DNA of 42,290 nucleotides, from IMG/VR virus record IMGVR_UViG_3300021387_000086, positions 1-42,290 of that record; one strand, given 5' to 3'. The position numbers and the translations under genes were made by a program. The notes under the pieces were generated by a model. The model was not told the DNA's origin, made no database searches, and was given only the letters and a program-made list of their open reading frames with translations. Position 1 is the stretch's first letter, and each line of letters begins with the position of its first letter. The stretch is from a virus. Shown piece after piece: positions 24,787 to 31,889 of the stretch.

Positions 24787-24860
24787 AGAGGGATGAGGTT
24801 TTCGACTCCTCGACCTCCGGGTTAATACCCTGGCGCTCTTACCAGCTGAGCTAATCCCCC
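24787..24860 (-). tRNA. tRNA-like gene with non-canonical anticodon and T loops (anticodon ATT if the loop is 7 nt)
   Basis: Minus strand GGGGGAT-TA-GCTC-AGCTGGTAA-GAGC-G-CCAGG-GTATTAA-CCCGG-AGGTC-GAGGA-GTCGAAA-ACCTC-ATCCCTC-T. The acceptor and D arms are good. There is an A-C mismatch in the anticodon stem, an A-A at 53:61 and G54 in place of T54. No CCA is encoded. Confidence 0.55.
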
Positions 24861-28812: not shown

Positions 28813-29145
28813 ATGATTGACTTACAAGAAAATCTGGGTGCTATCCTCAAAGAAAGAGGAATTTTGCACAAAAACGTCGCTCAGGCGATGGGTGTTACTG
28901 ACGCAGCTGTTAGCAACTGGTTCAACCGAACGGTCGAATTGAAGTTCAGCACCATTTCACAAATCTGTGAAAAATTTAATATCCCCGTTGTGGATGTCGT
29001 TACCTACCCCAAAAAATACATCCCGCAGGATAGTGTCAACCCCGAATGTGAGGAGTGCCGGAAGAAAGATGAGATGATTGAGAACCTCACCGAACTCCTC
29101 CGGCGCTACAAAGCCGAAGCCAAACAGAAACCCAAAAAAGAATAG
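28813..29145 (+). CDS. CI-like repressor (XRE-family HTH)
   Basis: KNVAQAMGVTDAAVSNWFNR helix-turn-helix; divergent from the Cro-like gene. Confidence 0.8.
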   Translation: MIDLQENLGAILKERGILHKNVAQAMGVTDAAVSNWFNRTVELKFSTISQICEKFNIPVVDVVTYPKKYIPQDSVNPECEECRKKDEMIENLTELLRRYKAEAKQKPKKE

Positions 29146-29148
29146 CCT

Positions 29149-29775
29149 ATGGAGATACTATTTTTCGTAATCTTCCTTGCCATCATTGTCGTCGTAGGTG
29201 GCATACTTGGAAACAAAAAAGACCAAGAGAAGAAAGCCGCCGAGCAAAAAGAGCGAGACCGGGAGACATTGGAAACAGTGTCCCTGATCAAGCTCGGCCT
29301 CACAGAAAAGAACGAAGCCAACAATCAGCGCATGGACGCATGGAAAGAGTGGCACGAGAATCATGCCGACCTCGGAGTACCAACGACGTACGTCGGCTTC
29401 TCGACACTCGAAGGCTGGCCATGGGAACGGAAGCATGTGAACCTTATCTTCGACGAAAGCAAATCACCAGACGGACAGTTGGATGATGTGCTGAACGGCG
29501 ACGCGTGCCTGATTCCGTACTTGGTGCCTGACTTCCGGAACTGCGCACTGTTCTTTAAGGATGCGCGTACAGCGTTCATCGGCGGCCGGTTCTTTAATCC
29601 GGAGGAGATACGCTTCGTCAAAAGCCGGACGGATAAGGAAAACGACCAGATCATCGTCACGGTAACCACTACGAGCCTCGACTGCCCAACCTTTACGATG
29701 GAGTTCGGAAAGGATGACCGCGAAGATGTGGACGAACTCAAAGCGGCTATAACCGCCTTCAAGGCACTCAAATAA
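29149..29775 (+). CDS. N-terminally membrane-anchored protein co-transcribed with the repressor (exclusion/abortive-infection candidate)
   Basis: MEILFFVIFLAIIVVVGGILG TM helix; starts 3 nt after the repressor stop. Confidence 0.65.
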   Translation: MEILFFVIFLAIIVVVGGILGNKKDQEKKAAEQKERDRETLETVSLIKLGLTEKNEANNQRMDAWKEWHENHADLGVPTTYVGFSTLEGWPWERKHVNLIFDESKSPDGQLDDVLNGDACLIPYLVPDFRNCALFFKDARTAFIGGRFFNPEEIRFVKSRTDKENDQIIVTVTTTSLDCPTFTMEFGKDDREDVDELKAAITAFKALK

Positions 29776-29782
29776 AAAGGCA

Positions 29783-30028
29783 ATGAGAATAGATGAGAAG
29801 ATCCTGATCGCTCAAATCAAAAAGAGCATCAGCGAGAACGTAGCTCCGGAAGATAGAGAAGCGTTCGCCGAATGTATCAAGTACAGGCTGGAGAATATGA
29901 TCTTCCTGTCGGATATCGATATCGAGAAGAAATACGGCGAACTGCTTTCCTATCTGATGGATATGATAGAAGAGGCGGATGCGACAGAAGGAATCAACCT
30001 CCACCTGATCGCAGCTGCTTTGCCATAA
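29783..30028 (+). CDS. Hypothetical acidic protein (81 aa), third gene of the repressor operon
   Basis: Tightly spaced after the previous gene. Confidence 0.5.
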   Translation: MRIDEKILIAQIKKSISENVAPEDREAFAECIKYRLENMIFLSDIDIEKKYGELLSYLMDMIEEADATEGINLHLIAAALP

Positions 30029-30065
30029 TGCGCGTACATGCGTCATTAGTCCGGCGCGCATTATG
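30024..30065 (+). terminator. 11-bp perfect inverted repeat CATAATGCGCG-N20-CGCGCATTATG at the end of the repressor operon
   Basis: Read directly. It overlaps the stop codon and has no U-run, so terminator function is uncertain. Confidence 0.4.
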
Positions 30066-30176
30066 CGCACGGGACTGATAACGCAATAAACGCACGCACG
30101 TATATAAATAAGGTGTAAACGGCACAGATACGGCACATAAATGCCGTGTCTTGCCGGACACCGACGATCCTAACGT

Positions 30177-30312
30177 ATTGAGAATAAGCACGAGTCAACT
30201 GTCCAACCGCCGCTGAATGTATCCCTAGTTCGATTCTCGGTGGCACCACGAGGGCAGGCTATTACAGGTCTGCCCTTCATTTTGGAAAACAAAATCGGCA
30301 CAAAATCGGCAC
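30177..30312 (+). other. att-region module A: ATTGAGAAT, tRNA T-arm/acceptor 3' mimic (30224..30248), terminator hairpin (30251..30276), 2x AAAATCGGCAC (30291..30312)
   Basis: CCTAG-TTCGATT-CTCGG-TGGCACC-A, then AGGGCAG-N12-CTGCCCT. There is no matching 5' acceptor strand or D arm upstream. Confidence 0.6.
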
Positions 30313-30423
30313 AACAGTTTTAAGTGGTGTGACGATGGCCAATCGCTCTTTCTTATTCTCAATTTCGGCACGAGGACGGCACGCAGCCGTCCGAGATGAT
30401 CCAAAACAAGAAATGTTTAACTG

Positions 30424-30569
30424 ATTGAGAATCAGGAAATGACGTTGCAAGCCCTGCCCCGGAATCCCCGGACCAATAGTCACTGGTTCGATTCCCGTTG
30501 GCACCACAAGGGCAGCAAATACAAGGCTGCCCTTAATTGTAACATAAAAAATCGGCACAAAATCGGCAC
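30424..30569 (+). other. att-region module B, a paralogue of module A
   Basis: CTGATTGAGAATCAG anticodon-arm mimic (loop TTGAGAA). ACTGG-TTCGATT-CCCGT-TGGCACC-A at 30482..30506. AGGGCAG-N11-CTGCCCT at 30509..30533. 2x AAAATCGGCAC at 30548..30569. Confidence 0.6.
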
Positions 30570-30574
30570 GAGAA

Positions 30575-30614
30575 ATGTTAACAGATGTTAACAGATGTTA
30601 ACAAATGTTGACGA
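30575..30614. repeat. Four tandem 10-bp repeats ATGTTAACAG (GTTAAC cores) upstream of the integrase
   Basis: 30575, 30585 and 30595 are exact; the 30605 copy is degenerate (ATGTTGACGA). Confidence 0.9.
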
Positions 30615-30671
30615 GCCGTGTGCCCGATGGACTTTCTTTCCGGTTCTCGCGAGAATTGGAAAGAAAAAAAA

Positions 30672-31889
30672 ATGTCTAAATCTCACACACAAGAGTTTAC
30701 CCCTTATGTTCCGGCGGTTCTGAGGAAGAACTGCCACGGGTATGTCATTGAGTATTACTTCCTGAACGGCTTGACCGGCGAGCAGGAACGGCGAACCATC
30801 AAGATGAACCGCATCCGGAAGCGGTGCCAGACCGCTGCCGAGTTCAAGCAGTACGCGCAGAGCGTGATCTGTAACCTCAACATCAAACTCGCTAACGGTT
30901 GGAGTCCCATGGGCGAGGTGCAGAACACCCGTGAGTTCGTGCCGCTGCCGCAGATCATCGACCAGTACATGCGGGAGAAAGAGAGTGAGCTGTCCACCAG
31001 TTCACTCCCGGCGTATCGTTCCTTCACCGGTCGTCTGAAGGAATGGATAGAGACGCAGTACCCGCAATGCAACTGTGCGCTGTTTACGAAACTCATGGCG
31101 GTGCAGTTCCTCGACTACCTCTGGAGCGGGAAGAGTGCCCGGTACAACTGCGGCAAGAAGATGAACCAGGCTGACAACCATATCAGCGAGCGAGCGTATA
31201 ACAGTAACCTCAAACTCGGCCGTGCGTTCTTCAGCTGGTGCATCAACAAGTGCTACGCGAAGGAGAATCCCTTCGAGACTATCAAGCCCAAGCGAACGAA
31301 ACAGAAGACCCGCACGCTCATTCCGGAGACGATACGGTTACAGATCGACGGGTACTGGGCAGAACATAACCCTGCGATGCAGCTCATGTGCCGGCTGGTT
31401 TATACGGCGCTGCTGCGTCCGGTGGAGGCGACGAGGGTACAAGTGCACCAGATACGGTACGACCGCGATTGTATCGTCATGCCTTGCGAGCAGACCAAGA
31501 ACGGCAAGGAACGTGTCGGGCGGTTGGATGCCAGTCTGAAGGCATTGCTGCGACAGTACACCGCCGGAGCCGGACCGACGGACTACCTCTTCAGCAACCG
31601 CGAATGGAAGCCCGGCAAGAAGCCCAAGAACAGCCAAATGTTCGCGAAAGAGTGGATGAAGATGCGCAAGGAACTGAAGCTGCCTGCGAAGTACCAACTC
31701 TATTCTCTCCGGGACACCGGCATCAGCGACCTCATGCACGATGGCGTTGCAGATATCGACGTGATGCACGCCGCCGGCCATAGTGACCTGAACATGACAA
31801 CGCGCTATGCAGACCATATCGACGATGACCTGATAGCGCGCATCAATTCCAAGAGCCAGTTCCGGAAGCGTCAGCCGACAATCTCGTAG
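30672..31889 (+). CDS. int: Tyrosine integrase
   Basis: ATG at 30672 after an A-rich leader. ALLRPVEA (Arg), YSLRDTG (Arg), AAGHSDLNMTTRYADH (His and Tyr nucleophile). Confidence 0.9.
   Translation: MSKSHTQEFTPYVPAVLRKNCHGYVIEYYFLNGLTGEQERRTIKMNRIRKRCQTAAEFKQYAQSVICNLNIKLANGWSPMGEVQNTREFVPLPQIIDQYMREKESELSTSSLPAYRSFTGRLKEWIETQYPQCNCALFTKLMAVQFLDYLWSGKSARYNCGKKMNQADNHISERAYNSNLKLGRAFFSWCINKCYAKENPFETIKPKRTKQKTRTLIPETIRLQIDGYWAEHNPAMQLMCRLVYTALLRPVEATRVQVHQIRYDRDCIVMPCEQTKNGKERVGRLDASLKALLRQYTAGAGPTDYLFSNREWKPGKKPKNSQMFAKEWMKMRKELKLPAKYQLYSLRDTGISDLMHDGVADIDVMHAAGHSDLNMTTRYADHIDDDLIARINSKSQFRKRQPTIS

Follow-up and report, generated by a model that had tools for sequence, protein, structure and literature searches.

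Two tandem attP-like units matched to two alleles of tRNA-Phe(GAA) upstream of one integrase gene in a temperate Bacteroidales phage

Two attachment units upstream of one integrase

Upstream of the tyrosine integrase (Int) gene of IMGVR_UViG_3300021387_000086, a temperate Bacteroidales phage, we identified an attachment (att) region that resembles two phage attachment sites (attP) in tandem, each with a core copied from a different allele of the host gene tRNA-Phe(GAA). The window, which here means the whole stretch of DNA that was analysed, is the complete 42,290-bp IMG/VR virus record, in which terminal repeats are present. We regard the prospects as evenly balanced that, of two complete attP units upstream of one integrase, the upstream one, unit A, is an allele-specific second attP. 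To judge from the junctions found in related lysogens, it is close to certain that the region is a tandem attP on tRNA-Phe in which the downstream unit, B, is active.

The two units lie at 30120-30570, just upstream of the integrase gene (P0001, 30672-31889), which adjoins them both. They are about 250 bp each, with their elements in the same order, and sit within a 640-bp stretch without genes. This gap between the preceding operon and the integrase is where an attP is expected. An original prediction, made from the letters of the window alone, had described two modules sharing an order of elements; all of these elements were found in place, and a repeat search recovers both modules. The T-arm/acceptor block at 30222-30257 is repeated at 30480-30515 (36 nt, 86% identity, 258 bp apart), and the hairpin and arm-site block at 30258-30312 is repeated at 30515-30569 (55 nt, 80% identity, 257 bp apart). 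Further upstream in each unit, TAACGTATTGAGAATAAG (30171) matches TAACTGATTGAGAATCAG (30418). The context of ATTGAGAAT is repeated at 83% identity, and the three exact occurrences of ATTGAGAAT in the 42-kb window are all in the att region.

Architecture of the attachment units

The anatomy of the units was derived by comparing the window with relatives found through the integrase, the neighbouring 81-aa open reading frame (ORF) and DNA patterns; labels such as L126 denote contigs and loci retrieved in these comparisons. Judged by its elements, each module is a whole attP unit, made up of a P arm, a GAGAAT dyad, a core, a hairpin and a P' arm. In either unit the P arm begins with CGGCAC-N5-CGGCAC, the second site lying within a strong dyad, and the GAGAAT dyad follows about 40-55 nt further on. 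After this dyad come a non-conserved spacer, the tRNA core, the hairpin and two AAAATCGGCAC sites about 46 nt past the tRNA end. The elements are as follows.

30120..30221 (+): P arm of unit A (P1), with CGGCAC at 30120 and 30131, the second in the dyad ACGGCA-N6-TGCCGT; the dyad TATTGAGAATA at 30176-30186; then a non-conserved spacer
30222..30249 (+): core A, TCCCTAG-TTCGATT-CTCGG-TGGCACC-A-C, corresponding to tRNA-Phe(GAA) positions 47-73(+1), allele CCTAG/CTCGG
30250..30312 (+): P' arm of unit A (P'1), with a hairpin of the type AGGGCAG-N12-CTCGCCCT at 30251-30276 and two AAAATCGGCAC sites at 30291-30312
30313..30365 (+): joint between the units, with the conserved block CAGTTTTAAGTGGTGTGACGATGGCC and an inverted CTCTTTCTTATTCTCAAT at 30346-30363
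30366..30478 (+): P arm of unit B (P2), with CGGCAC at 30366 and 30377, the second in the dyad GGACGGC-N5-GCCGTCC; the dyad CTGATTGAGAATCAG at 30421-30435; then a non-conserved spacer
30479..30509 (+): core B, GTCACTGG-TTCGATT-CCCGT-TGGCACC-A-CAA, corresponding to the tRNA-Phe(GAA) allele ACTGG/CCCGT from position 46
30508..30569 (+): P' arm of unit B (P'2), with the hairpin AAGGGCAGC-N9-GCTGCCCTT and two AAAATCGGCAC sites at 30548-30569

The arms recur individually in related phages. The P'1 layout is also seen 3' of the tRNA in the lysogens L132, L138 and L220, P2 is nearly identical in the single-module relatives L139, L125 and L222, and P'2 follows the regenerated tRNA-Phe at the left junction (attL) of L220. 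Both module hairpins fold stably (-19.5 and -15.9 kcal/mol, z -4.5 and -3.9), as does the P1 dyad (-21.2 kcal/mol, z -6.7). The prediction that each module has a hairpin and arm-type repeats of its own was thereby borne out.

CGGCAC occurs eight times in 30120-30569, rather than the nine or more first reported, always on the + strand and in four pairs at 11-bp spacing (30120/30131, 30296/30307, 30366/30377 and 30553/30558-30569). Across the whole window it is present 48 times against 22 expected, a count that none of 100 shuffles reached. Paired CGGCAC sites flank both cores and are conserved throughout the family, including where the tRNA target differs. Integrases 61-66% identical to that of the window (L127, 2800-2990; L236, 2700-2890 (-); L129, 2790-2960) sit behind tRNA-Thr(CGT) or tRNA-Ala(GGC), and these distant relatives keep two CGGCAC sites about 45-60 nt past the tRNA, in the same P' layout. 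Because one layout stands behind different tRNAs, CGGCAC would be the arm-type site of the family and the core the part that lineages swap. We infer that the CGGCAC pairs are putative binding sites of the Int N-terminal domain (a Pfam domain search places the first ~90 residues of P0001 ahead of its SAM-like domain), and that the GAGAAT dyads would bind an accessory factor.

The joint contains the inverted motif that had been noted between the modules. Its inverted copy ends in ATTCTCAAT (30355-30363) and is complementary to P1 at 89% over 18 nt, a score reached by none of 500 shuffles. The size and content of the joint differ among lineages (L231-L233, L134), with core-to-core distances of 258, 331 and >290 bp. 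In L231 (990-1110), L232 and L233 the distance is 331 bp and the joint holds two extra TTTCGGCAC sites and two inverted copies, GTACTGCCGAAA; these phages are otherwise near-identical, and within the tandem it is the joint that varies most. A reading of the joint as a truncated int leader was not relied upon, since the resemblance between the two is weak (its score was reached by 5 of 500 shuffles for the window and by 48 of 500 for L126).

The target gene tRNA-Phe(GAA) and its alleles

When one genome per prokaryotic species was scanned for GTTCGATTCNCGNTGGCACCA, at least 120 loci were returned; these belong to Bacteroidales save for a single unrelated match outside tRNA genes and a few contigs whose bins carry other names. 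Among the matches listed, all those of full length are the 3' end of tRNA-Phe(GAA), and the 119 Bacteroidales loci carry three T-stem alleles, CCTGG/CCCGG (55 loci), ACTGG/CCCGT (41) and CCTAG/CTCGG (23), which differ by compensatory changes at 49:65 and 52:62. Core A (30222-30249) is an exact copy of CCTAG/CTCGG from position 47 to one base past the discriminator, and core B (30479-30509) is an exact copy of ACTGG/CCCGT from position 46. With both cores matching real host alleles, the idea that the region carries phage-borne replacement 3' ends of a tRNA target holds, and the cognate tRNA is tRNA-Phe(GAA).

Other elements of the original prediction have to be revised. A T-C mismatch at 51:63, first noticed as shared by the two modules, is indeed present in both; it is not a peculiarity of the phage, since U51:C63 is found in all three host alleles among these same matches, which makes it native to the host tRNA. 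A mismatch at 51:63 was always present in the Bacteroidales tRNA-Phe(GAA) genes examined (L003-L122), and a fourth allele in L224 (1-45), CCCGG/CCTGG, carries it inverted to C51:U63. The predicted tRNA-Leu(GAG)-like anticodon arm fails in its turn: the target is tRNA-Phe(GAA), and neither module resembles this tRNA upstream of position 46-47, which means that the ATTGAGAAT palindromes are not anticodon arms. The CTGATTGAGAATCAG palindrome that had been read as tRNA sequence is replaced in a relative by CCTATGAGAATAGG and behaves as a dyad site, and a tRNA-Leu(GAG)-derived segment was rejected as well, with the 46-nt spacer between palindrome and T arm unconserved (27% identity to L126). The absence of a 5' acceptor strand and a D arm was correctly described. 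ARAGORN finds no cloverleaf in the region, and Rfam returns no tRNA match in 29900-30750 at E up to 10 beyond chance level, in keeping with an incomplete tRNA.

These findings bear on whether the modules could be expressed tRNA-like RNAs, i.e. mimics or half-tRNAs with their own role in infection, which we consider highly improbable. The succession of a T arm, an acceptor strand and a stable hairpin is what such RNAs might look like; however, the modules are without a 5' acceptor strand, a D arm and an anticodon arm, the tRNA searches just described found nothing, and a consensus scan of 29700-30800 gave no promoter-like site. Moreover, they are fully explained as tRNA-Phe 3' ends that join the host gene at attL. 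The earlier label of tRNA mimic is therefore not apt, as nothing points to an expressed tRNA-like RNA.

The five genomes checked for copy number each gave one strong match to tRNA-Phe. The hosts that carry allele A and those that carry allele B are closely related and share flanking synteny, at 70-80% nucleotide identity; host flanks from the lysogens are 66-84% identical, with gene order preserved, to genomes of either allele, ACTGG/CCCGT (L114, L011, L083 and others) as well as CCTAG/CTCGG (L099, L014, L116). In Bacteroidales, tRNA-Phe is a hot spot of integration. It is used by another abundant phage family (L169-L219 in IMG/VR, e.g. L170, 4940-5011 (-)), in which the identity block is 45 nt long and starts in the anticodon stem, and truncated tRNA-Phe fragments stand at the host loci L017, L026, L047, L073, L088, L109 and L118. 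A scan of IMG/VR for any tRNA-Phe 3' end yielded 53 stretches, mostly from the phage family with the 45-nt block; each of the 52 examined is single-copy, and none of them has the CCTAG/CTCGG allele.

Natural junctions through unit B

Junctions with host DNA were found for phages whose Int is 97-99% identical to that of the window or whose 81-aa ORF is identical. At attL (L220 and L221, with an Int 97% identical to the window's) the host dNK and TrmO genes and a promoter precede a complete tRNA-Phe of the ACTGG/CCCGT allele, which is followed directly by hairpin B, the two arm sites and int. At the right junction, attR (L226, L227, L228 and L230, from four samples), the order is 81-aa ORF, P1, core A, P'1, joint, P2, core B and the host terminator, beyond which lie the host genes Pyr_redox, LolA and FtsK. 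The host flank at attR is 95% identical to the rumen metagenome-assembled genome RUG337 (L114), whose tRNA-Phe is unoccupied and has the same terminator, identifying L114 as the bacterial attachment site (attB). The two attL and four attR contigs, six in all, each join the host through module B; module A lies within the prophage, beside attR. Free phage forms (L229, L234, L235 and L131) retain both units intact. As read from these assemblies, the phages integrate at the 3' end of tRNA-Phe via core B and regenerate the gene with a phage 3' end and a putative phage terminator, and both units are conserved. The attL and attR foreseen by the prediction were thus recovered for module B.

Inter-core DNA gave chance-level matches of 20-40 nt in 401 sampled Bacteroidales genomes, with no scars or prophages. 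The integrase gave one match, at tRNA-Thr, in 401 genomes from the family of one tRNA-Phe host, and none at E 1e-140 in 401 genomes of the order.

Conservation of unit A and a chromosomal scar

L126, whose Int is 81% identical to that of the window and which has the same arrangement of A and B, served as the reference for a footprint comparison. Within unit A, conservation amounts to 93% for the P1 site pair, 93% for the dyad, 28 of 28 positions for core A, 82% for the hairpin and 90-96% for the P'1 sites together with an extension of 29 nt, against 40-47% for the spacers of the unit. Unit B has a like pattern, with 100% for the hairpin and 91% for the P'2 arm sites. Core A is likewise conserved at 28 of 28 positions in L131 and L226-L235. 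Unit A thus shows what appears to be a footprint of selection. The tandem recurs in a third lineage, L134-L137 (Int 80% identical), in which the first core is cut by the contig end. Phages with a single unit are also found, each in a host whose allele matches its own core: L138 (Int 82%) at attL behind a CCTAG/CTCGG tRNA-Phe, L132 (Int 79%) behind ACTGG/CCCGT, and L224 (Int 83%) behind the fourth allele.

A host contig of 110 kb, L124, carries a scar in which a complete tRNA-Phe is followed in turn by a P'1-type arm, a joint, a P2-type arm, another 3' fragment of tRNA-Phe and, last, the host terminator. This segment measures 253 bp from core to core, has no ORF, is bounded by attL and attR, and has host genes on both flanks. 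Its joint has CGCTCTTTCTTATTCTCAAT in common with that of the window, which points to a common ancestry of the scar and the inter-core segment of the window. The inter-core segment is therefore known from a chromosome as well as from phage genomes, and in either setting it is bounded by two cores.

Proposed role of the tandem and alternative explanations

Unit B is the working site: recombination of core B with the tRNA-Phe of RUG337-like rumen Bacteroidales, presumably by Int, regenerates the tRNA at attL next to int and leaves unit A together with the displaced tRNA fragment at attR, and the phage hairpin would replace the tRNA's terminator. We hypothesize that unit A is kept by selection because the same phage may also integrate into related hosts whose single tRNA-Phe has the CCTAG/CTCGG allele. 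A mismatched core would be expected to produce either heterology in the region of strand exchange or a tRNA with a broken T stem. For an element that targets a tRNA gene, identity is required only between the crossover and the gene's 3' end; as none of the lineages compared has its tRNA identity beginning later than position 47, exchange would fall in the region of the T stem and T loop. In tyrosine recombinases, heterology within the overlap should block exchange. If the overlap lay at positions 47-53, the alleles would differ inside it and exchange should be blocked; if it were the T loop, a host 5' T-stem strand would be joined to a phage 3' strand with two of five Watson-Crick pairs. Recombination by Int at alternative cores could also give rise to the tandem or resolve it, through accretion or through excision of a gene-free attL-attR cassette, and a scar such as that in L124 might form when a phage enters at one core and leaves at the other, or be captured through excision at the outer sites. 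Cassettes shed or captured in this way would mark or modify the tRNA-Phe locus of the host.

On this basis we find it plausible, at close to even prospects, that A works as an allele-specific alternative attP. We propose more tentatively that two allele-specific attP units served by one integrase are an adaptation to attB polymorphism in the T stem of a single tRNA-Phe, widening the range of hosts that can be lysogenized without damage to the tRNA, and that mixed use of the cores sheds or captures gene-free attL-attR cassettes.

Several observations weigh against a working unit A. In none of the two-module phages was a junction found that runs through core A, and B is the core used in all six of the junction contigs. 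Single-unit relatives with an Int 87-95% identical to the window's (L139, L125/L002 and L222) have only P2-B-P'2, and in L226-L235 the first P1 arm site reads CAGCAC rather than CGGCAC, which could mean decay. The conserved and spacer blocks of the L126 comparison were delimited after the alignment had been viewed, although the contrast between them is large. The L124 scar carries the same allele at both cores and so does not itself show use of two alleles. Finally, the four att sites (attP, attB, attL and attR) do not differ anywhere in the 30-31-nt block, within which the crossover point cannot be mapped; were strands exchanged 3' of the T arm, the allele would not matter to the integrity of the tRNA.

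The main rival to an allele-specific unit A, which we judge unlikely, is that module A is a passenger, a conserved but idle relic. It would be either a leftover accreted attL-attR scar or a second attP-int module whose int was deleted, small, harmless and without a role in integration, for which B alone would count. The exclusive use of B at the junctions, the existence of single-module relatives and the mutated P1 arm site of the L226 lineage all speak for a passenger, as do the homology of the A-to-B segment to the L124 scar, the varying length of the joint and its weak resemblance to the int leader. A dead relic, however, should decay evenly, whereas core A, the arm sites, the dyad and the hairpin are 82-100% conserved beside spacers at 40-47%, and core A is still an exact match to a living host allele. 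Another role for A would be as an accessory of recombination at B, with extra arm-type sites and a second core that recruit or titrate Int, and possibly an excision factor, and thereby tune the direction or frequency of excision. Unit A directly adjoins attR in the lysogen, contributes four further CGGCAC sites on the same strand and two GAGAAT dyads, all no more than 260 bp from core B, and is conserved in those blocks that resemble protein sites. We nevertheless hold an accessory role to be improbable: it leaves unexplained why A has a full 28-nt core matched to another real allele, compensatory pairs included, together with a terminator hairpin of its own, and single-module relatives integrate without A. 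The original prediction had offered dual integration specificity or a captured att fossil, and both alternatives stay live. Its concern that one module alone might match a host tRNA, with the other unconserved, is answered in part, since both modules match host alleles and A is conserved, while the junctions of this lineage are all at B.

Comparison with known systems

Bacteroides NBU1 and NBU2 integrate at tRNA-Leu and tRNA-Ser, and phages P4 and P22 are further cases of an attP that targets a tRNA 3' end. As in other attP of tRNA-targeting tyrosine integrases, the phage described here carries the 3' part of its target tRNA, and integration restores the gene at attL, with a displaced fragment at attR; the integrase is adjacent, candidate arm-type repeats flank the core, and the identity block starts in the T-stem region. 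Unlike those systems, it has two full tandem units for one integrase, with cores that represent two alleles of a single tRNA gene. Full-text literature searches for natural tandem, duplicated or dual attP returned engineered two-attP constructs only.

In the Islander catalogue of islands and phages integrated in tRNA genes, crossover in the T region is one of two common classes (1836 of 3919 islands), and 125 tandems of two or more islands are recorded (PMC4383910). Such arrays have in common with the window repeated tRNA 3' fragments from successive integrations at one tRNA gene; here, in contrast, the fragments are 258 bp apart inside a free phage genome and not between chromosomal islands. 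Site-specific accretion of integrative and conjugative or mobilizable elements (ICEs/IMEs), and the cis-mobilizable elements (CIMEs) that take part in it, have been reviewed (PMC5704250, citing Pavlovic 2004 and Bellanger 2011). The 253-bp cassette of L124 resembles a CIME in being flanked by att sites, without its own integrase, at the target gene. In CIME accretion an int-bearing relative can integrate beside the cassette and the composite can excise by the outer sites, which would give the order P1-core-P'1-joint-P2-core-P'2. Unlike a CIME, the cassette has no cargo, consisting of a P' arm, a joint and a P arm only, its carrier is a phage rather than an ICE, and the duplicated attP is found in a free element. 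Free phage genomes hold a cassette homologous to that of L124 between two cores, which could reflect either capture or shedding.

In mycobacteriophages with tRNA-dependent lysogeny, failure to rebuild an essential tRNA at attL is lethal to the lysogen unless compensated (PMC10865867). This system shares the selective logic that we propose for allele-matched cores. Whereas those phages compensate with a tRNA gene of their own, the phage studied here would carry a matching 3' end for each host allele. The parts of the att region are standard, and tandem arrays and accretion were already known; what is unusual is a free phage with two full attP units, one integrase and cores of two alleles.

Integration is usually described in terms of one integrase, one attP and one attB, and little is known of how phages cope with an attB that differs between host species. 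If the proposed role of unit A is true, spare attP units matched to each tRNA allele would be a concrete and testable answer to such variation, for which natural materials are in hand: both alleles, phages with one unit and with two, lysogens and a scar. The integrase and attP form a compact pair for uncultured rumen Bacteroidales, with a conserved single-copy target in tRNA-Phe, and could serve integrative vectors. For software that predicts prophage boundaries, caution is warranted, as the tRNA fragment 258 bp inside attR could pass for the end of the prophage.

Genome context of the attachment region

To the left of the att region lies a rightward operon, comprising a helix-turn-helix (HTH) regulator (28813-29145), a 208-aa ORF and the 81-aa ORF, which has its stop at 30028. 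Features that border the two units are the following.

29783-30028: 81-aa ORF of the rightward operon, left of the att region
30024..30076 (+): nested inverted repeats just past the stop of the 81-aa ORF, from a repeat search; likely a terminator and the left border of the att region
30575..30612 (+): four 10-bp tandem repeats, ATGTTAACAG, from a repeat search; outside the duplicated unit
30618..30671 (+): int leader with a 15-bp hairpin (30633-30666), ending just before an A-run and ATG, from repeat search and folding
30672..31889 (+): gene of the 405-aa tyrosine integrase P0001 (Pfam PF00589, 5e-17; weak PF13102; PHROG 1 integrase, 4.6e-28)

The inverted repeats at 30024..30076 are 91% conserved relative to L126, and the 41 nt that follow them only 20%. 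The scan of 29700-30800 for promoter and terminator consensus sequences found nothing, the loops of 9-12 nt in the hairpins exceeding its limit. Among 50,697 GenBank phages, BLASTN found no match to the att region.

Between the P'2 arm sites and the int leader lies a hypervariable slot, in which relatives carry unrelated repeats or none. L139 (2785-2925) and L002 have ATGCAGATATT five times and TAGGATGTTTT four times, L131 (2950-3010) and L229 have an inverted repeat, and L126 has nothing. Such repeats may be swappable operator arrays that control int. The hairpin of the int leader (-17.6 kcal/mol, z -3.7) stops 5 nt before the A-run and ATG and is kept throughout the integrase family. At its centre is TTCTCGCGAGAA, which is similar to the ATTGAGAAT/ATTCTCAAT dyads in the att arms, and one factor might act on both. 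Elsewhere in the window, at 24787-24860 (-), a tRNA-like gene scores 43.3 bits with the Rfam tRNA model and is not called by ARAGORN; it has the anticodon loop GTATTAA, an A-C mismatch in the anticodon stem and an odd T loop, GTCGAAA.

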